This document shows positions 50,751 through 58,957 of a DNA stretch of 64,000 nt, in pieces; within the stretch, counting starts at the first letter, position 1, and each line of letters starts with the position of its first letter. Location of the stretch: positions 59,732-123,731 of the forward strand of contig JAZDQA010000010.1 of NCBI GenBank assembly GCA_043797085.1. Reading direction: 5' to 3'. Source of the stretch: Pseudomonadota bacterium. Lineage in GTDB: Bacteria; Campylobacterota; Campylobacteria; Campylobacterales; Sulfurimonadaceae. The position numbers were made by a program, and so were the translations under genes. Under the pieces are notes generated by a model. That model made no database searches, was not told where the DNA came from, and worked only from the letters and a program-made list of their open reading frames with translations.

Positions 50751-50826
50751 GGCCAATTAGCTCAGTCGGTAGAGCAGTAGATTGAAAATCTGCGTGTCCT
50801 TGGTTCGATTCCGAGATTGGCCACCA
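50751..50826 (+). tRNA. tRNA-Phe (GAA)
   Basis: 76-nt cloverleaf GGCCAAT...ATTGGCC-A-CCA; anticodon loop TTGAAAA; T-loop TTCGATT. Confidence 0.97.
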
Positions 50827-51023
50827 CCTTCACTTCCTAAAATACATTAAAAAACTCCATTATAGATTCAAACATTATTAAGCCAATTTTGCCTGTCCAA
50901 CTTCACGTCCATAACCATTTATTTAAATATGGTTCTAAACTGAATTCATAAAAATGTTATATAAAAATTGCGGGATAAATTATGATATAATCTTTGCATA
51001 TACAACATATGCAGGAGTCTGAC

Positions 51024-52628
51024 TTGATCAACATCGCCACTATTAAAGGCAAGCTTAATGCCCTAATAATTCTTAGTATTGTTATCTTTGCAACAATGGG
51101 GTATTTGTCTTATTCAAACAACAAAGACGCCAAAAAAACCGCTGAGCGTATGATTTTACTGGGTGAAATTCAAAGCTATAGTAATGGATCGATGATGGAG
51201 CTTCGCGGATATCAGCTTTTGTATACTGATGAATTTATAACACGTTACAATGAGAGTAACAAAAAACTCTCCGAAACGGTCGAAACACTCTCTAGTATAA
51301 CTCGATCCAAAGAGAACAAAAAGCGGCTTTCCAATATTGCTGCTCACCACGCGCAGTGGGTCACTCTCAATGAACCTCGTATAAAAATCATCAGTGAAAA
51401 TGAAAGTGAAGTCCATAGTCTTGAGTTCTTATCTACTCCGGAGGGAAAACAACTGGCTCAAATTACCAAAGAGTCTGCTAAAACTTATCAAAGTATTATT
51501 GAAGAAGAACACGATTTGCTAGCCTCTATGAAAAAGAAAAATATCGATACACTCGATTCCAATGCAATGATCATGGAAATCCTCATTTTTATCAGTGCTT
51601 CGATTATGATAGGAATTTTTTTCCTCATTATCGGCAATATTTCTCGTTCAATCGGTCGCCTTGAAACGACTATTAAAGCCATTGCTCATGACCGAGATTT
51701 CACCCAAAATGTCCGAGTCGAAGGGAACGATGAACTTTCTGAAATGGGAAGAAAATTGGGCGAACTTGTCACTATGCTGCGTGAGTCATTTGGAGCTATT
51801 CACATGGCGTCAAACGAAAATCTTTCCGTTTCTGCCCAACTTTCAGCAACAACTCTAAGCATCGGAAAAGCGGCGGAGGAAGAATCACGTATCGTCCGCG
51901 AAACAACGTATGAATCGGATCAAATGAAAGCAGCAATGCAAGCATCTGCGAATGAAGCACAAAGTGTTCGTGATCAAGCAGTCGGTGCGAGAGAAAATCT
52001 CCAAGAAGCACAACGAGCCCTTCACAATACGATTGAACAGCTTTCTATCACCGTAGAGATGGAAGGTGAAATCAATCAACGACTCAATTCTCTTTCCCAA
52101 GAAGCGTCTCAAGTTAAACAAGTTCTCACCGTCATCGCCGATATCGCCGATCAAACCAACCTTCTCGCTCTCAATGCCGCAATCGAAGCAGCCCGAGCAG
52201 GCGAGCACGGTCGTGGATTTGCCGTCGTTGCCGATGAAGTGCGTAAACTCGCTGAACGTACCCAAAAAAGTTTGATCGAAACCAACGCTACCGTCAACGT
52301 CATCGTTCAGTCTATCAACGACATCACCGAACAGATGAACCACAACACCAGCCGTATCGAACAGCTAGTAAGTGCTTCTTCTGCGGTAGACGATCATACA
52401 GCCACTGCTGTGAGCGCACTTGAAGAAACTGTAGAAGCCATCGAAAAACTCTCAGCCGATACATCTGCCAATGCAAAAACAACGGATGCCATTATTATTA
52501 AAATCTCTAAAATTCATGAGCTTTCAGCTTCCAATGCACGAAGTGTCGAAGAGATTGCTGCTGCTGCAGAACATTTGCATAAAATGACTGAACGCCTCAC
52601 GGATCAAGTTTCGGTTTATCGTACCTAG
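51024..52628 (+). CDS. Methyl-accepting chemotaxis protein
   Basis: Two TMs, HAMP domain and [41 protein letters not shown] start inferred from RBS AGGAG. Confidence 0.95.
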
Positions 52629-52647: not shown

Positions 52648-52691
52648 TAGCGCTAATAGCGCTATTAGGCTTCCCGTGATAAAATTCCGCT
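52648..52691 (+). promoter_or_regulatory. Promoter of the selenium operon: 16-bp palindrome plus extended -10
   Basis: CTAATAGCGCTATTAG (52653-52668) is a perfect palindrome; TGA-TAAAAT at 52677-52685 ends 6 nt before ATG 52692. Confidence 0.55.
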
Positions 52692-53702
52692 ATGATGCAA
52701 ACAATCCCTATTGAAACCTTTTTAGCCTCTTTTGATAAATATGATCTAATTATCGATGCCCGAAGCCCCAATGAATATGGCGAATCTCATATTCCTCACG
52801 CGCGCAATTTTTACGCCCTCAGTGATGAAGAACACACCCAAGTAGGAACTATCTACAAACAAGTCTCCCCGTTTGAAGCACGTCTCAAAGGTGCCTCCTT
52901 CGTCTGTCTCAATGCCGCACGTCACATCCAAGAGCTCTATCCTACCTACAACCCAGGGTCAAAAATCGCGATTTATTGCGCTCGCGGAGGGATGCGTTCT
53001 TCTTCACTTGGAACCATCTTCTCAAGCATCGGCTATCCTATCGAAAGGGTCATCGGTGGCTATAAATCGTACCGAACCTTTATCACAGGGTATCTTGACA
53101 ATCTTCCATCCATTCACTTTTTGACCTTGATGGGGCATACGGGATGCGGTAAAAGCGATCTTCTCCAAGAGTTGACCAATATCATCGATTTGGAAAAAAT
53201 GGCGCATCATTACGGCTCAGTCTTTGGAGATGTCAACGGTGCACAACCCACCCAAAAAGAGTTTCAAAATCGTTTGGTTCACGCGGTTTTGGGATTAGAC
53301 CTCAGGCAGGGGGCTTTTGTGGAAGCTGAAAGCAAACGAATCGGTAAAATCATGCTCCCAAACTCCCTCTATCGTCAAATGGACTCAGGATTGCGCATAG
53401 AGATTACCGCCCCCCTAGAACAACGTGTAACTCGGATTATGCGAATGTACGATCACATGGATGAGAGCTTTTTTATGGAACGAATGGAGCGGATTTCCCC
53501 CTACATCAGCCGTGACGATAAAGCTTCGAGTATCACTGCATTCCTTAACGGTGATTTACCGCGTGTCTCTGAGATATTATTAACCCAATATTACGACAAA
53601 GTGTACAAAGTCACCGTCAAACCCACCATCACCATCCATAATGACAACCCCGCCAACACAGTCGAAATGCTCAAGGAAATACAACGTGAACAACGCTTCT
53701 AA
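52692..53702 (+). CDS. mnmH: tRNA 2-selenouridine synthase
   Basis: Rhodanese IDARSPNEY..HIP and YCARGGMRS; P-loop GHTGCGKS; DLEKMAHHYGSVFG and EAESKRIG. Confidence 0.93.
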   Translation: MMQTIPIETFLASFDKYDLIIDARSPNEYGESHIPHARNFYALSDEEHTQVGTIYKQVSPFEARLKGASFVCLNAARHIQELYPTYNPGSKIAIYCARGGMRSSSLGTIFSSIGYPIERVIGGYKSYRTFITGYLDNLPSIHFLTLMGHTGCGKSDLLQELTNIIDLEKMAHHYGSVFGDVNGAQPTQKEFQNRLVHAVLGLDLRQGAFVEAESKRIGKIMLPNSLYRQMDSGLRIEITAPLEQRVTRIMRMYDHMDESFFMERMERISPYISRDDKASSITAFLNGDLPRVSEILLTQYYDKVYKVTVKPTITIHNDNPANTVEMLKEIQREQRF

Positions 53703-54720
53703 ACTCACCAAATTTGTCCGCGCTTCAGGTTGTGCCGCGAAACTCTCCCCTGGGTCGCTGGAAAACGTCACCTGCCATCTGAAATCGTTTCACAAAGATT
53801 TACTGGTAGGATTTGAGGGAAATGAGGACGCTGGGGTTTACCGTATTACGGATGATTTGGCGATGGTGCAGACGGTCGATTTTATCACCCCTGTCGTCGA
53901 TGATCCGTTTATCTACGGGCAAATCGCGGCGGCTAACTCTCTAAGCGATGTCTTTGCCATGGGAGGCGATGCCAAAACCGCCCTCAACCTCGTAGGGTTT
54001 GATGGCAAAAACCACCACACTGAGATTCTCACTGAGATTTTGCGTGGCGGAATGAGCAAAGTGCAAGAGTGCGGTGCGGTCATCATAGGCGGTCATACCA
54101 TCGAAACGCCTGAGATGATTTACGGTCTTTCGTGTACGGGATTCGTCCATCCAGATAAAATTTTGCGCAACAATACCGTTCAGGATGGGGATCTGATTCT
54201 CCTCACTAAACCTTTGGGATTGGGGATTTTAACCACTGCCATCAAAGCCGATTTACTGGATGAAAACACCGTCATCCAAGTCGCCGACACCATGCGCACC
54301 CTTAACTATAAAGCCTCATTAATCGCACGGGAATTTAATGCTCATGCGTGTACCGATGTGACGGGTTTTGGATTTTTGGGGCATTTGCGCGAAATGAGTG
54401 GGGGTGTAAAAACCATCCAAGTGAATGCTTCGTCTGTCCCATTTTTTCCCGAAGCGATGGGGATGGCAGCGATGGGGATTATCCCTGCGGGAAGCTACGC
54501 CAACCAAGAGTATTTGCAATCGCACGTACATTTCAAGCGTAACATTGGTGCTGATTTGGAGATGATTCTTTTTGATGCACAAACATCAGGGGGACTTTTA
54601 ATCTCCGCAACGCCTCAAAATGCTCAAAAAATGGTAGAACGCTGTTTAAGTGAGGGGATAAACGCCGTCATTGTTGCCGAAGTTATTGCTAAAACCCATA
54701 CCGATATTATTGTAGGATAA
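53686..54720 (+). CDS. selD: Selenophosphate synthetase (Cys form)
   Basis: SGCAAK (TGT codon, not TGA), QTVDFITPVVDDP, AANSLSDVFAMG, TDVTGFG and DAQTSGGLL; GTG start at 53686 with RBS AAGGAA. Confidence 0.96.
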   Translation: MNNASKLTKFVRASGCAAKLSPGSLENVTCHLKSFHKDLLVGFEGNEDAGVYRITDDLAMVQTVDFITPVVDDPFIYGQIAAANSLSDVFAMGGDAKTALNLVGFDGKNHHTEILTEILRGGMSKVQECGAVIIGGHTIETPEMIYGLSCTGFVHPDKILRNNTVQDGDLILLTKPLGLGILTTAIKADLLDENTVIQVADTMRTLNYKASLIAREFNAHACTDVTGFGFLGHLREMSGGVKTIQVNASSVPFFPEAMGMAAMGIIPAGSYANQEYLQSHVHFKRNIGADLEMILFDAQTSGGLLISATPQNAQKMVERCLSEGINAVIVAEVIAKTHTDIIVG

Positions 54721-54723
54721 CCC

Positions 54724-55809
54724 ATGCACCGACGCGAATTCATCAAAAAAACCGCCCTCTCAGGGGCAATTTGTCTTAGCCCTTCTTTTCTAACCGCTTC
54801 GGTGGAGATAAAAAACACGTTGGCACTTTATGACCTCCAATGGAAGTTTGATCTCACCGCTCATGGTGCAAAAGAGTGTGCATTGTGGATTCCTCTTCCC
54901 CGTGATATTTCAGGATTCCAAAGTGTTCTTCAAATCGGTAGTGAAAGTACCTCTAAAAAAAGTTTTCAAACGACTCATAATAATTACGAAAGTGCAACAT
55001 TTTATGCTTACTGGAATAAAAATGCCACAAATAAAACTCTTGATCTATCGATGAAAGTAGCCTTACGCGACTGTCAATGTGACTTTAAACGCACACGAGT
55101 TTGCCCCAATGTTATAGAAGAAGCCAAAGAATTTTTAGCCCCGACAGCCCATATCCCCACAGATGGTGCCGTTGCCAAAGCAGCCAAAAAAATCGTCGCA
55201 AATGAAAAAGACCCTCTTAAAAAAGCCCGAAAAATCTATGACTGGATTATCGTCAACGCTTACCGCGATGAAAATGTTCACGGGTGCGGAGTAGGTAGCC
55301 CCAATGCGATGTTGGCACAACTCGAAAAAGATGGTCGCATGGGAGGAAAATGCCTTGATATGTCTGCACTGTGCGTTGCACTTATGCGTGCATCAGGTAT
55401 CCCTGCTCGCGAAGTGATGGGGATACGTGTCGGTGCTTCACGATTTTCTTCTGCTTTTGGAACAAAAGAGGATATTACCAAATCCCAACACTGCAAGCTA
55501 GAATTTTTTATTGATACTTTAGGCTGGATACCTTGTGACCCTGCCGATATTACCAAGCTGGTACTCAAAGAAAATCTGGAAAAAACCTCTCCCCGCGTCC
55601 GAGAGCTTGCCGATAAATTTTTCGGATTTTGGGAAAACAACTGGATGGCATTTAATCACGCACGCGATTTTGACCTCTATCCTACCAATACTCAAGGCAC
55701 ATTGGATTCGTTTGGCTACCCGTATGCTGAAATAGAGGGTGAATACCTCGATCCCTTTGAACCCTCAGCCTACCAATACAAAATTCTCTCCAAAAAAGTG
55801 ACTTTATGA
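54724..55809 (+). CDS. Tat-exported transglutaminase-like domain protein
   Basis: HRREFIKK twin-arginine signal; GCGVG; putative triad GGKCLD / QHC / PCDPAD. Confidence 0.85.
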   Translation: MHRREFIKKTALSGAICLSPSFLTASVEIKNTLALYDLQWKFDLTAHGAKECALWIPLPRDISGFQSVLQIGSESTSKKSFQTTHNNYESATFYAYWNKNATNKTLDLSMKVALRDCQCDFKRTRVCPNVIEEAKEFLAPTAHIPTDGAVAKAAKKIVANEKDPLKKARKIYDWIIVNAYRDENVHGCGVGSPNAMLAQLEKDGRMGGKCLDMSALCVALMRASGIPAREVMGIRVGASRFSSAFGTKEDITKSQHCKLEFFIDTLGWIPCDPADITKLVLKENLEKTSPRVRELADKFFGFWENNWMAFNHARDFDLYPTNTQGTLDSFGYPYAEIEGEYLDPFEPSAYQYKILSKKVTL

Positions 55810-56414
55810 TCCTCGACTGCCGTGATATGGAGTGTCCCCGTCCCGTACTGGAAACCAAAAAAGTATTGGACGCGCTTCCTGAAGATGCCACGCTCGTCCT
55901 AGAGGTAAACACTCTCAGCGGTCGTGAAAACTGCAAACGCTTTGCCCTCTCACAGCAATGCACTTTTACAGAAGAACTCCTGGAAGATGGTGCAACACGA
56001 TTGACCATCACCAAAGGGCTGGGCTATACACCAAATGATGATGAAAACCCGCTGGATACCATGATGCAACAAGAGCGTCGCAGTGCCGTCCTCGTCCTCT
56101 CAGGGGCATTGGTCACGGCATTACTCTCCGCCTCATGCTGTTTGGTTCCGACACTGTTTATGGTGTTTGGAATCTCCTTTGCAGGAGTTATCAATGTTCC
56201 ACAATTGAACAGCTATCGCTGGATTTTCACCGCTGTTGCTGTCGTGATGCTCAGTATCGGTTTTTACCAAATGGTGATTAAAAAACAAATCGAATGCGAT
56301 TGCGAACCGAGTTTAACCTCTAAAATATTAATAACACTTTTTTGGTCACTTTTCCTCTTTAGCCTTGCTGCCCTTTTCTATCCCTATTATGAGGCGTTAC
56401 TATGGGGAGAATAA
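55806..56414 (+). CDS. TusA/SirA(YedF)-like carrier domain fused to a MerT-like membrane transporter
   Basis: N-terminal LDCRDMECPRPVLETKK (CPxP); C-terminal 3 TMs with ASCCLVP and a loop CDC typical of MerT. Confidence 0.8.
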   Translation: MILDCRDMECPRPVLETKKVLDALPEDATLVLEVNTLSGRENCKRFALSQQCTFTEELLEDGATRLTITKGLGYTPNDDENPLDTMMQQERRSAVLVLSGALVTALLSASCCLVPTLFMVFGISFAGVINVPQLNSYRWIFTAVAVVMLSIGFYQMVIKKQIECDCEPSLTSKILITLFWSLFLFSLAALFYPYYEALLWGE

Positions 56415-56668
56415 CTTTAGGATTGTTGCTGTTAGCCACTCTCGCCTACTCACGCCAATGGAATCTGCACATAGACGGGATGCACTGCATCGCCTGCACG
56501 TTGGCGGTCAAAAAAGCACTGCTAAGTGTTCACGGTATCCAAGAAGCAAAAGTAAACTTTAAAAATGAAAGTGCTTGGGTAAATACCGAGGATACAGTGA
56601 GTTTAAAAATGATGCAAGATGCTGTGGTGCAAACGGGTTATACGGCGACAATAGCAACCAAAAACTAA
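56402..56668 (+). CDS. Periplasmic heavy-metal-binding protein (MerP-like HMA domain)
   Basis: Signal peptide followed by GMHCIAC..VKKAL. Confidence 0.88.
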   Translation: MGRITLGLLLLATLAYSRQWNLHIDGMHCIACTLAVKKALLSVHGIQEAKVNFKNESAWVNTEDTVSLKMMQDAVVQTGYTATIATKN

Positions 56669-56695: not shown

Positions 56696-58957
56696 TTACG
56701 CTTTACATACCCTATTTCGACCGCTCTCTTTTGCCTTATACAAAGCCCTGTCCACTCGTCCCACACACTCATGAACACTCTCGTGAGCCATGAATTCACC
56801 CGCACCGATACTAACCGTCACGCTATGCCCTAAACCAAACGAGAACTCCTCTATTTTACGACGAAAACTTTCCGCAACAATCAACGCTGCCTCCGCATTT
56901 GTATGAGGGAAAATCGCGATAAACTCTTCTCCTCCCCAACGTCCAAGTATGTCGGTATCACGAAGATTTTCTTCCATAATGTTTGCTAAAGTCTGTAAAA
57001 CACTATCCCCTGCCTGATGCCCTGCGGTATCGTTAATTACTTTGAAATTATCCACATCAATCATCATCAAAGCACAATGATAATCCGTATATCGATTTAC
57101 CTTTTTTTGCTCTTTTATAAGTATGATATCCGTTTTTTGACGGTTATACAGTCCCGTTAGCTTGTCCGTAATTGAGAGTTCAAGCAAACGTGCGTTGTAG
57201 CGCTTGAGTACAATATATCGCCATGTAAAAGCCAAGAGTCCAATCACAAACACTAATAAAAACTTCCAAACTACTCCACGATCGATCCATGATACCTCTT
57301 CGACTGTTGATACCCAGCGGTTATATATCGTTTGCATCTCAGCAGGATCAAGATTTTTGACCATTTTTTCAAACACGCCGTACAACATCGGCTCATCGTT
57401 ACGGACAGCTACACTCAATTCATCCTTATCATCAAGCCGTGAGGATACCTTTAAAATTCCGGTATACTCTTTTTGAATATACGATGACACAACTAACAAA
57501 TTATCAATATAACCGTAAAGTTCGCCGCTTTCGACCTTGCTCAAACCTTCATTAATCGACTTTACTTCCACAATATGCAAATTTGGGTAATGGGCTTTTA
57601 CCATAGCGACAGTCGTATATCCTTTGACAATTCCAATTTTTTCCTTTGTCAATGAATCCATATTCTCTGTAAAAAGTTTGTCATTCGTTGTCACCATAAC
57701 GTATGGAATACTCAGATACGTAGAGGTAAAATTGATGTATTTTAATCGATCAGGAGCACTGCTTGCAAGAGATAAAATATCACATTTTCGCTCTTGTGCA
57801 TACAAAAGAGATTCGTTCCATGAGGACGTCGGGACTAACTCGATAGGCATACCCAGTTGTTTCTCGAAAACACGCATCACATCCGCTGCCATACCGATAT
57901 GCTTGCCCTCTCGTATTGCTTCAAGCGGATACCACTCCGGATCCACGCACATCGTAATTTTTTTCTTTTCAAAAAGATACTTTTTCTCATCACTCGAAAA
58001 TTCAATATTTTCGCGAGAATTTACAGCGATATCCTTAAACATATAGCGACCAAGTTTTTGATCACTATTGAGCACACCTGTTTGTATCAGCTGTTTAAAC
58101 GCTCGAACTGTCAGTTCAGAATTGACTTCACCAATGGGATAAAAATCGGTCATCATCAGCTGTTTTATCACTTTGGCTTCATATTTTAAAGCACCGCGTG
58201 ATTTTTTAGCCGCATATTTATGCTCTAAAAGATCAATCATTTCATTCGGGTGATCAAGCGCGTATTTCCATCCGCGATTGGTTGCATCAATAAATCGGCG
58301 AGTCCGATCCGTATGCTCAATCGCTTCTACAGAGGAGGTAAAAAGGTTAACCGCACTCATCATAAACCCGTATTGTGCAGGATCAATAATTTCGTACTCA
58401 ATACCCCTGCGGTCAAGTTCATAGAGCTGATTGGAGCGAAAAGCGCTCATTACATCCACTTTCCCATCAATAAAATTTTGAATATTAAAAGTGTGATCGA
58501 CAAAGTGAGCATTTTTAGGAGATATACTAAAATGGTTAAGCAAGAGGGCTAAAGAGCTGTATTTGAGCTCGTAGCTTGTTCCCATTATTGTTTTACCTAT
58601 CATATCACTGGGATTTTTAATCCCTTTGCGTGCAATGAAAACGAGAGGGGAGTGCTGAAAATACGTACCCATCAAGACAATTGGTTTTACGCGCCCCTTT
58701 TCAACCATAATACTGGAGTTGTATACGCCATATGTTGTTCTACCTGCTAAAACATCTGCACCAATATCAATGCCATCATGATATTCAAGTAACTGGACAT
58801 CCAAATCTGCATCGCGGTAAAATCCTTTTTCTTTGGCAGCAATAAATCCGGCAAACTCAAACTGATATTTCCAATCAAGTTGTACAGATACTTTTTCGGC
58901 ACTTCTTTGTGCCATTAAAGAGGTAATAATAAATAAAATAAGAAGAAAAAATCTCAC
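56696..58957 (-). CDS. Diguanylate cyclase with NMT1/THI5-like and type-2 periplasmic binding domains
   Basis: LDWKYQFEFAGFIAAKEKGFY; second PBP domain; TM; TDKLTGLYNR and RDTD..RWGGEEF. Confidence 0.9.
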   Translation of the reverse strand: MRFFLLILFIITSLMAQRSAEKVSVQLDWKYQFEFAGFIAAKEKGFYRDADLDVQLLEYHDGIDIGADVLAGRTTYGVYNSSIMVEKGRVKPIVLMGTYFQHSPLVFIARKGIKNPSDMIGKTIMGTSYELKYSSLALLLNHFSISPKNAHFVDHTFNIQNFIDGKVDVMSAFRSNQLYELDRRGIEYEIIDPAQYGFMMSAVNLFTSSVEAIEHTDRTRRFIDATNRGWKYALDHPNEMIDLLEHKYAAKKSRGALKYEAKVIKQLMMTDFYPIGEVNSELTVRAFKQLIQTGVLNSDQKLGRYMFKDIAVNSRENIEFSSDEKKYLFEKKKITMCVDPEWYPLEAIREGKHIGMAADVMRVFEKQLGMPIELVPTSSWNESLLYAQERKCDILSLASSAPDRLKYINFTSTYLSIPYVMVTTNDKLFTENMDSLTKEKIGIVKGYTTVAMVKAHYPNLHIVEVKSINEGLSKVESGELYGYIDNLLVVSSYIQKEYTGILKVSSRLDDKDELSVAVRNDEPMLYGVFEKMVKNLDPAEMQTIYNRWVSTVEEVSWIDRGVVWKFLLVFVIGLLAFTWRYIVLKRYNARLLELSITDKLTGLYNRQKTDIILIKEQKKVNRYTDYHCALMMIDVDNFKVINDTAGHQAGDSVLQTLANIMEENLRDTDILGRWGGEEFIAIFPHTNAEAALIVAESFRRKIEEFSFGLGHSVTVSIGAGEFMAHESVHECVGRVDRALYKAKESGRNRVCKA

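Follow-up and report, generated by a model that had tools for sequence, protein, structure and literature searches.

The stretch of DNA considered here, referred to as the window, comprises 64,000 nucleotides (nt) of a genome assembly of the Sulfurimonadaceae (GCA_043797085.1, contig JAZDQA010000010.1, positions 59,732 to 123,731 of the forward strand). It contains a compact run of five genes in which selU and selD are followed by a gene for a transglutaminase-like protein (tgl), a gene that fuses a TusA-type domain to a MerT-type membrane domain, and a merP-like gene; the last three, whether or not MerT carries the TusA part, are called the trio below. On balance we favour the interpretation that this operon couples SelD and SelU, the genome's only selenophosphate consumer, to a Mer-like accessory module for selenium trafficking. 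A sequence-only reading of the window had described five genes overlapping or abutting on one strand, and all five open reading frames (ORFs) are indeed found at the coordinates listed here; the profile search which it recommended for the five products placed each of them above the Pfam or NCBIfam cut-off of the family named.

52692..53702, + strand: selU (mnmH), tRNA 2-selenouridine synthase, rhodanese and P-loop domains; NF008750 347 bits (cut-off 241)
53641..54720, + strand: selD, selenophosphate synthetase; TIGR00476 353 bits (cut-off 125), with AIRS and AIRS_C
54724..55809, + strand: tgl, transglutaminase-like protein with a putative Cys-His-Asp triad and a Tat (twin-arginine translocation) signal; PF01841 68.3 bits (cut-off 23)
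55180-55542, + strand: transglutaminase core of tgl, residues 153-273
55806..56414, + strand: fusion of a TusA domain (YedF-N type) and MerT; PF01206 45 bits (cut-off 28.6) and PF02411 33.8 bits (cut-off 32.9)
55809-56015, + strand: TusA domain of the fusion, Cx4CPxP motif (C5, C10)
56088-56390, + strand: MerT domain of the fusion, CC (C111, C112) in transmembrane helix 1 (TM1), C164/C166 in the TM2-TM3 loop
56402..56668, + strand: merP-like, predicted periplasmic HMA protein; PF00403 41.9 bits (cut-off 24.8)

The junctions claimed for these genes were also confirmed, base by base. The selD ATG at 53641 falls within selU, the stop codon of which lies at 53700-53702; an alternative in-frame GTG start at 53686 would shorten the overlap with selU to 17 nt, as in locus L060. 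Between the last base of the selD stop (54720) and the tgl ATG (54724) there is a gap of 3 nt, whilst tgl and the fusion gene share an ATGA overlap (55806-55809), and the merP ATG at 56402 precedes the fusion stop (56412-56414) with an overlap of 13 nt.

In family scans the selU product also matched TIGR03167 (307 bits, cut-off 219.75) and the rhodanese family PF00581, and SelD is of the Cys form (SGCAAK). The genome, the assembly of which is 95.86% complete, encodes no other SelD, and the fusion likewise holds the genome's only MerT domain and its only TusA domain. The absence of selA and merA, previously noted for the window, extends to the whole genome, in which selA had no match and the top match to the MerA model reached 303 bits against a cut-off of 454.45; selB and merR, which had been listed as absent in the same statement, were not searched for. 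As there is no selA, the use of selenium is probably restricted to tRNA selenouridine. Neither YedE nor a full-length YedF is present in the genome.

Tgl is predicted to be a Tat-exported periplasmic protein. Its N-terminus reads MHRREFIKK, with the arginines at residues 3-4, the alignment consensus is MxRRxFxK, and the RR motif occurs in 70 of 76 Tgl rows. No NCBIfam family was matched. The AlphaFold2 (AF2) model (predicted local distance difference test, pLDDT, 83; predicted template modelling score, pTM, 0.84) is disordered over residues 1-31 and found its top fold match in 3ISR (Foldseek E-value 1e-14, TM-score 0.57/0.70), followed by the TgpA periplasmic domain and transglutaminases. Five residues (C188, C210, H256, C257, and D272) are invariant in 48/48 rows of the trio clade and in 18/18 of the other rows that are not of the Nitrosomonadaceae type; by their position in the core C210, H256, and D272 are assigned as the putative Cys-His-Asp triad.

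The fusion protein is 202 amino acids (aa) in length and its residues 3-97 have their best NCBIfam match in positions 1-90 of the YedF model TIGR03527 (46.6 bits, cut-off 110). The N-terminal SirA/TusA-like CPxP domain that is characteristic of YedF is present, with a Cx4CPxP motif common to the true YedF of relatives. The C-terminal DsrE-like CGxC domain is not, the C-terminal half being a MerT-like membrane domain instead; the fused part would appear to be a YedF N-domain in which the usual DsrE partner has been replaced by membrane MerT. In 13 fusions C5, C10, P11, P13, C111, C112, and one loop Cys are invariant. Hydropathy gives three helices (111-129, 140-158, and 174-192) and a basic loop (159-173) with C164/C166, a topology which places the TusA domain and this loop on the same, cytoplasmic, side of the membrane. 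Pfam PF02411 is barely passed and the MerT equivalog NF010314 gave 40.8 bits against a cut-off of 150; amongst MerT-like rows the helix-1 CC is kept in 51/52 and one loop Cys in 51/52, the second loop Cys being variable. The MerP-like protein (88 aa) has a hydrophobic N-terminal leader and the motif GMHCIAC (GMHCxxC; C29, C32). It scored 45.2 bits with MerP TIGR02052 (cut-off 92.55), CopZ-type models scoring equal or higher, and CxxC is found in 50/50 MerP-like partners of Tgl loci.

Conservation of the neighbourhood, a check that had been suggested with the original description, was analysed within the genus, which the names of the genome's nearest relatives suggest to be Sulfuricurvum or close to it (29 genomes, G000 included). 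Fourteen of these genomes carry the full fusion, five a TusA-part protein of ~196 aa, and one (G017) MerT without TusA. These ~196-aa proteins represent true YedF; that of G035, the one examined by profile scan, gave 167.7 bits against a cut-off of 110. The order selU-selD-tgl-fusion-merP recurs in 12 of the 13 other genomes with the fusion, and in the thirteenth the contig ends inside tgl; as the order is maintained whilst the flanking genes differ, the five-gene arrangement goes beyond chance. Amongst the 21 SelD-positive genomes, 15 have the trio, five a stand-alone YedF, and one (G133) neither, and the eight SelD-negative genomes are all without a Tgl or TusA/YedF match. In the SelD-positive members of the genus the trio and YedF behave like alternatives to each other. 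The TusA domain of the fusion is 53-59% identical to the YedF N-domains of the same genus, and in a sister genus (G012) YedF is placed between selU and selD.

Three trio genomes of the genus (G091, G097, and G129) encode a further SelD at another site. A complementarity between YedE and the trio was also considered and was found too weak to use: the YedE cut-off (200 bits) was reached by no genome tested, and the YeeE/YedE-like matches, seen in 4/6 trio-less SelD-positive genomes of the genus as against 0/5 trio genomes, lay at ~57 bits.

The wider distribution was examined with A1, an alignment of 14 Tgl proteins; 591 loci were confirmed in a species-level genome collection, the best 80 of which were kept, and their gene content was determined by ORF calling and phmmer seeding. 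In these 80 loci a MerT-like gene directly follows tgl in 51, and in 49 a MerP-like gene is present too. Carriers of the trio in the Campylobacterota include Sulfurospirillum, Arcobacter/Aliarcobacter, Campylobacter concisus, Sulfurovum, Nitratifractor, and Hydrogenimonas, and those in the Gamma- and Betaproteobacteria include Shewanella electrica, Buttiauxella, Pseudocitrobacter, Rosenbergiella, Wohlfahrtiimonas, Mesopusillimonas, and Chitinasiproducens. Outside Sulfuricurvum the TusA::MerT fusion occurs at five loci (L075, L079, L081, L088, and L090) of other Campylobacterota lineages, which we regard as independent fusions, and an exhaustive HMMER search of 1.84 billion representatives showed two-domain proteins of this kind to be very rare (the Sulfuricurvum cluster, P0102, P0105, and perhaps P0178). 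A quick maximum-likelihood tree, calculated for 76 Tgl proteins with five short rows left out (L064, L071, L089, L117, and L118), has one clade with 47/47 rows linked to MerT and a second composed of 28 rows with Tgl alone and a single trio row (L122). The widespread core of the module is Tgl, not the fusion. A protein atlas search returned unnamed transglutaminase-like clusters only. Duplication of tgl is also seen: two tandem paralogs lie ahead of merT-merP in uncultured Campylobacter (L133, 1475-3932; L138, 8531-11071), and genus g38 of the phylum sample has two Tgl matches per genome.

The sequence-only reading had asked whether tgl-merT-merP travels with selD rather than with merA. A sel gene was scored at a locus when selD, selA, selB, or selU was found with an E-value below 1e-20 within the fetched 10 kb, and on this definition 22 of the 80 Tgl loci have one (18/51 of those containing MerT and 4/29 of those with Tgl only). 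No strong MerA-like ORF was found near the trio in any of the 51 MerT-containing loci, and sel neighbours are found in many lineages, which bears the expectation out. At least seven gene arrangements of Tgl or the trio with sel genes occur in distant lineages, and those with selenium genes are given below.

selU-selD-tgl-fusion-merP: Sulfuricurvum
selD and tgl-merT-merP in divergent orientation, selA-selB close by: eight loci of the Arcobacteraceae
tgl-merT-merP and selB-selA in convergent orientation: L066/G017, selA 489 bits and selB 278 bits, both above their cut-offs
tgl-fusion-merP-selD: L079
tgl-fusion-merP-yedF-selD: L090
selA-tgl-selB: L123 and L136 (Thiothrix, Thiolinea)
selA-selB-tgl-molybdopterin oxidoreductase: L127
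SenA-x-SelD-EgtD-like-tgl: L111, 5720-11068, Tgl only; SenA 482 bits (cut-off 420)
selenium LysR regulator-x-tgl: L125, 6863-13542, Tgl only; regulator 266 bits (cut-off 250)

Tgl travels with four selenium traits, namely selenouridine, selenocysteine (Sec), selenoneine, and the LysR_Se regulon. In G017 selD lies 7 kb away from the trio and selB-selA, and the molybdopterin oxidoreductase of L127 appears to be split at the expected Sec codon. At L119 the trio sits within an island of selB-selA-selD, an HGD-D/BcrAD pair, and a YedF-like gene; company of the HGD-D/BcrAD type near YedF is listed for Slackia in the portion of Lin et al. (2015; PMC5322559) available to us. In the phylum sample, which is independent of these loci, coordinates were printed for 47 pairs of Tgl and SelD on one contig; in 31 of them, spanning seven families, the two lie ≤5.2 kb apart.

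Some of these neighbourhoods hold further genes. An Rv1679-like acyl-CoA dehydrogenase, an R2/ferritin-like protein of ~420 aa, and an Rv1680-like binding protein adjoin selD at L058 (13376-17000; Sulfuricurvum PD_MW2-type G017), and the first two of these types follow directly after selA-tgl-selB at L123 (5187-8352; Thiothrix), the R2-like proteins of the two loci being 41% identical (E-value 8e-75). Around tgl at L125 there are also genes for an ArsS radical-SAM (seleno)protein and an arsenosugar glycosyltransferase.

The association with SelD holds beyond the immediate neighbourhood. In the phylum sample (401 genomes) SelD was found in 162/165 Tgl-positive as against 138/236 Tgl-negative genomes, and two of the three Tgl-positive genomes lacking it have weak Tgl matches only. 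In the family sample (151 genomes) the corresponding figures are 21/22 and 67/129, and the lone Tgl-positive genome without SelD is 76% complete. Where the trio has no sel gene at its locus, SelD nevertheless passes the cut-off in 25 of 27 genomes, and in one further genome part of a SelD lies at the end of a contig. For comparison, SelD is present in 38% of representative genomes according to the part of a preprint (10.1101/2022.07.06.499078) accessible to us.

The region upstream of selU and the flanks of the operon contain the following features.

52677..52685, + strand: extended -10-like promoter motif TGnTAnnAT, 6 nt upstream of the selU ATG
50994-52628, upstream of the operon: methyl-accepting chemotaxis protein (MCP) gene
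52650-52668, between the MCP gene and selU: two adjoining copies of the palindrome TAGCGCTA
56696-58957, convergent, downstream of the operon: periplasmic-sensor GGDEF gene, terminating 27 nt beyond merP

The TGnTAnnAT motif is kept in place in 13/13 related Sulfuricurvum loci, the DNA further upstream diverging, which suggests that the operon may start here with a near-leaderless mRNA. The sigma-70 scan omitted the motif because it has no -35 box. Scans for consensus promoters and terminators gave sites no more frequent than in shuffled sequence, and the sole match of an Rfam scan was a tRNA-Phe at 50751. Six contigs of a groundwater metatranscriptome (X1) are 100% identical to the window. 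Two lie on flanking genes, and the other four cover segments of selU, of tgl, and of the fusion gene, as well as the junction between tgl and the fusion (55684-55897); such contigs cannot prove that the genes share one transcript, and they could stem from carried-over DNA. The matches in the sets X2-X4 are mostly relatives at 90-95% identity and probably DNA. The evidence is compatible with co-transcription of the five genes. As to the flanks, the MCP and GGDEF genes border the operon only in some relatives. The palindrome TAGCGCTA was considered as a general operator and dropped, since apart from the window it is present only in L040 and L041, the two loci most closely related to it; its copies may be what is left of a terminator, or may act as an operator locally.

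How such a module might serve SelD can be put in chemical terms. Selenium bound by two thiolates forms a selenotrisulfide, R-S-Se-S-R, which is formally like R-S-Hg-S-R, and the paired thiols found at every station would suit such a linear two-thiolate adduct, and equally Hg(II). Periplasmic selenium may be captured on the thiols of Tat-exported Tgl and/or on the CxxC of the MerP-like protein, and carried as the selenotrisulfide. Thiol exchange would then pass it to the Cys-Cys pair of the first MerT helix, from there to the cytoplasmic loop cysteine(s), and on to the Cx4C of TusA, and the fused YedF-type domain would hand it to SelD. A relay from the periplasm to SelD had been suggested in the sequence-only reading, and its link to selenium is supported by the neighbourhood, the co-occurrence with SelD, the YedF-type TusA domain, and the cytoplasmic topology, whereas the relay as such, selenium as its cargo, its inward direction, the order of the stations, and the role of Tgl are what we infer. 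A bolder proposal, which we put forward tentatively, is that Tgl, MerT, and MerP with a fused or separate TusA acceptor constitute the first dedicated high-affinity selenium acquisition system, a bis-thiolate relay which would sort selenium from excess sulfur chemically and not through a pore, feed SelD directly, and serve all four neighbouring selenium traits, with Tgl stripping or reducing environmental selenium onto cysteine.

A number of observations weigh against assigning the module to selenium. HMA and MerT domains normally bind metals. SelD is common in the phylum (300/401), such that co-occurrence discriminates only moderately, and related genomes are not independent, so that the Fisher p of 3e-23 is overstated; for both reasons the co-occurrence supports the link and does not prove it. 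In the fetched span 33/51 MerT-containing loci have no sel gene, and the trio is far from selD in genera g26, g38, and g47 of the phylum sample, in the Enterobacteriaceae, and in Shewanella, the distance being 57 kb to 1.4 Mb where measured. The choice of the best 80 of 591 Tgl loci biases these counts towards relatives of the query. Two Sulfuricurvum genomes (G035 and G133) have selU-selD without the trio, which makes the trio dispensable for selenouridine as such, an add-on rather than the core of the pathway. In the Nitrosomonadaceae-type Tgl clade, which has no MerT or MerP, eight of ten members are in genomes without SelD above the cut-off (one of them, G189/L110, is an unpublished genome); it is also the only clade where the otherwise invariant Tgl cysteines start to vary. 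Homologs with Sec in place of Cys, which the sequence-only reading had proposed to look for, were not found when two in-frame TGA flags were read with TGA as Sec. The TGA in G012 is the MerT stop codon, and that in G043 (L141, 5511-6602) replaces the invariant Trp307 of Tgl; with its MerT and MerP neighbours intact, this G043 tgl is probably a pseudogene or a sequencing error.

Given that thiol exchange has no built-in direction, the relay could run outward, or its thiols could hold excess or reactive selenium (selenide, Se(0)) whilst SelD works. Export or detoxification of this kind fits the association with SelD genomes equally well, and has been raised for YedE and YedF in the accessible part of Lin et al. 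(2015; PMC5322559). However, the module shares its operon with selenium-consuming enzymes, the MerP-MerT architecture of the Mer system works inward, and groundwater habitats of the Sulfuricurvum type are not, to our knowledge, selenium-rich; we consider this explanation unlikely. Handling of soft metals was the alternative offered with the original description: the trio would import or buffer Hg(II), Cu(I), Ag(I), or Cd(II), perhaps shielding selenide and selenophosphate or forming inert metal selenides. The mutual affinity of mercury and selenium is very high, the HMA matches include CopZ and MerP models, the MerT Pfam score is just above its cut-off, and the nearest plasmid relatives are annotated as MerT family proteins. 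Yet MerA is wanting both in the genome and, as a strong match, in the 51 loci, and import of Hg without a reductase sensitises cells. The MerT and MerP equivalog cut-offs are moreover missed widely, the MerT domain is ≤37% identical to plasmid MerT proteins, and the fused acceptor is a YedF-type domain, not HMA, all of which make a metal cargo rather improbable in our view.

The TusA family are sulfur carriers, and the host belongs to a sulfur-oxidising lineage; TusA and its partners might move sulfane sulfur, either for the 2-thiouridine that SelU converts or as the sulfur import of a sulfur oxidiser; importers of the YeeE/YedE-like type with TusA-like partners do carry sulfur compounds, as far as the available text of PMC11582611 describes them. 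On the other hand, the association also takes in genes with no link to 2-thiouridine (selA, selB, senA, and the selenium LysR regulator), the SelD-less genomes of the genus are without the module although they need sulfur, and the TusA domain matches YedF best. A relay for sulfur is, in our judgement, decidedly improbable. It would be barely credible, finally, that the trio works on its own in the periplasm, as a thiol or redox unit, and is no more than a neighbour of selU-selD in this genus. The 33 trio loci without a sel gene nearby would agree with this, as would the uninformative promoter and terminator scans, but at least seven sel-gene arrangements in distant lineages, the overlapping reading frames, and the pattern of presence and absence within the genus all speak for a functional connection. 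We retain the coupling of SelD and SelU to a selenium-trafficking module as the preferred interpretation.

How bacteria specifically take up trace selenium against a huge excess of sulfur, and deliver it to SelD without free toxic selenide, is a question of long standing. In the parts of PMC5322559 and PMC9312934 available to us, the candidates named are YedE, YedF, DUF3343, and LysR_Se, and YedE and YedF are no more than candidates for uptake. The survey of epsilonproteobacteria in PMC4607533 records mnmH and yedF near sel genes and contains no occurrence of "transglutaminase" or "mercur". Genes overlapping selD were mined in a preprint on selenoneine (10.1101/2022.04.13.486033), the main text of which, as far as accessible, has selA, selU, a glycosyltransferase, yedF, and duf3343; another preprint, in its accessible part, mentions rare MerT-family selenoproteins. 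Full-text searches returned no paper tying a transglutaminase-like protein or MerT/MerP to SelD or selenium uptake, these searches not covering the supplementary table of the selenoneine preprint, which may bear on novelty. The joining of Mer-like genes and a periplasmic cysteine enzyme to selenium-activating genes is probably an undescribed route of selenium delivery. The module offers a concrete and testable answer to the question of uptake in the chemical logic of paired thiols, as in the mercury relay, and is present in culturable bacteria (amongst others Campylobacter concisus, Arcobacter vandammei, Shewanella electrica, and Buttiauxella). It also flags as selenium-linked a transglutaminase-like family for which there is no curated family model, and the annotation "mercuric transporter MerT family protein" is probably misleading for this group.

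Amongst known systems YedE/YedF (FdhT/FdhU of Campylobacter jejuni), a candidate selenium transporter and its SirA/TusA-DsrE partner according to the accessible part of Lin et al. (2015; PMC5322559), resembles the module in combining a Cys-bearing membrane protein with a cytoplasmic domain of the TusA/SirA type and in being tied to SelD by neighbourhood and co-occurrence. However, the membrane part is MerT-like here rather than YedE, the DsrE-like half of YedF is absent, and there are periplasmic partners, of which YedE/YedF has none. Thiosulfate uptake by YeeE/YeeD (TsuA/TsuB) and the SoxT-type importers share with it a membrane thiol path that hands a chalcogen to a TusA-like carrier (PMC11582611, in the part available), but differ in an unrelated membrane fold, a sulfur cargo, and the lack of an HMA or transglutaminase-like partner. 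Tgl itself has the N-terminal beta-sandwich, transglutaminase core, and conserved Cys-His-Asp of the Cytophaga hutchinsonii structure 3ISR and the TgpA periplasmic domain (6G49). We know of no functional study of 3ISR, the title of which says putative protease only; identity to it is 15%, and Tgl differs in the extra invariant C188 and C257, the Tat signal, and the fixed pairing with MerT/MerP.

In layout the module resembles the Mer relay, in which MerP (periplasmic CxxC) passes its cargo to MerT (helix-1 CC, cytoplasmic loop Cys pair) and this in turn to the N-terminal HMA domain of MerA. Both have a leader-bearing HMA protein with GMxCxxC, a three-helix protein whose first helix bears CC and whose helix 2-3 loop bears one or more cysteines, and paired thiols at each station. 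Here, by contrast, there is no MerA (merR was not part of the search), the acceptor is a fused YedF-type TusA domain, the equivalog cut-offs are unreached with ≤37% identity to plasmid MerT, a transglutaminase-like protein with predicted Tat export joins as a third, obligatory member, and the genomic partners are selenium genes.

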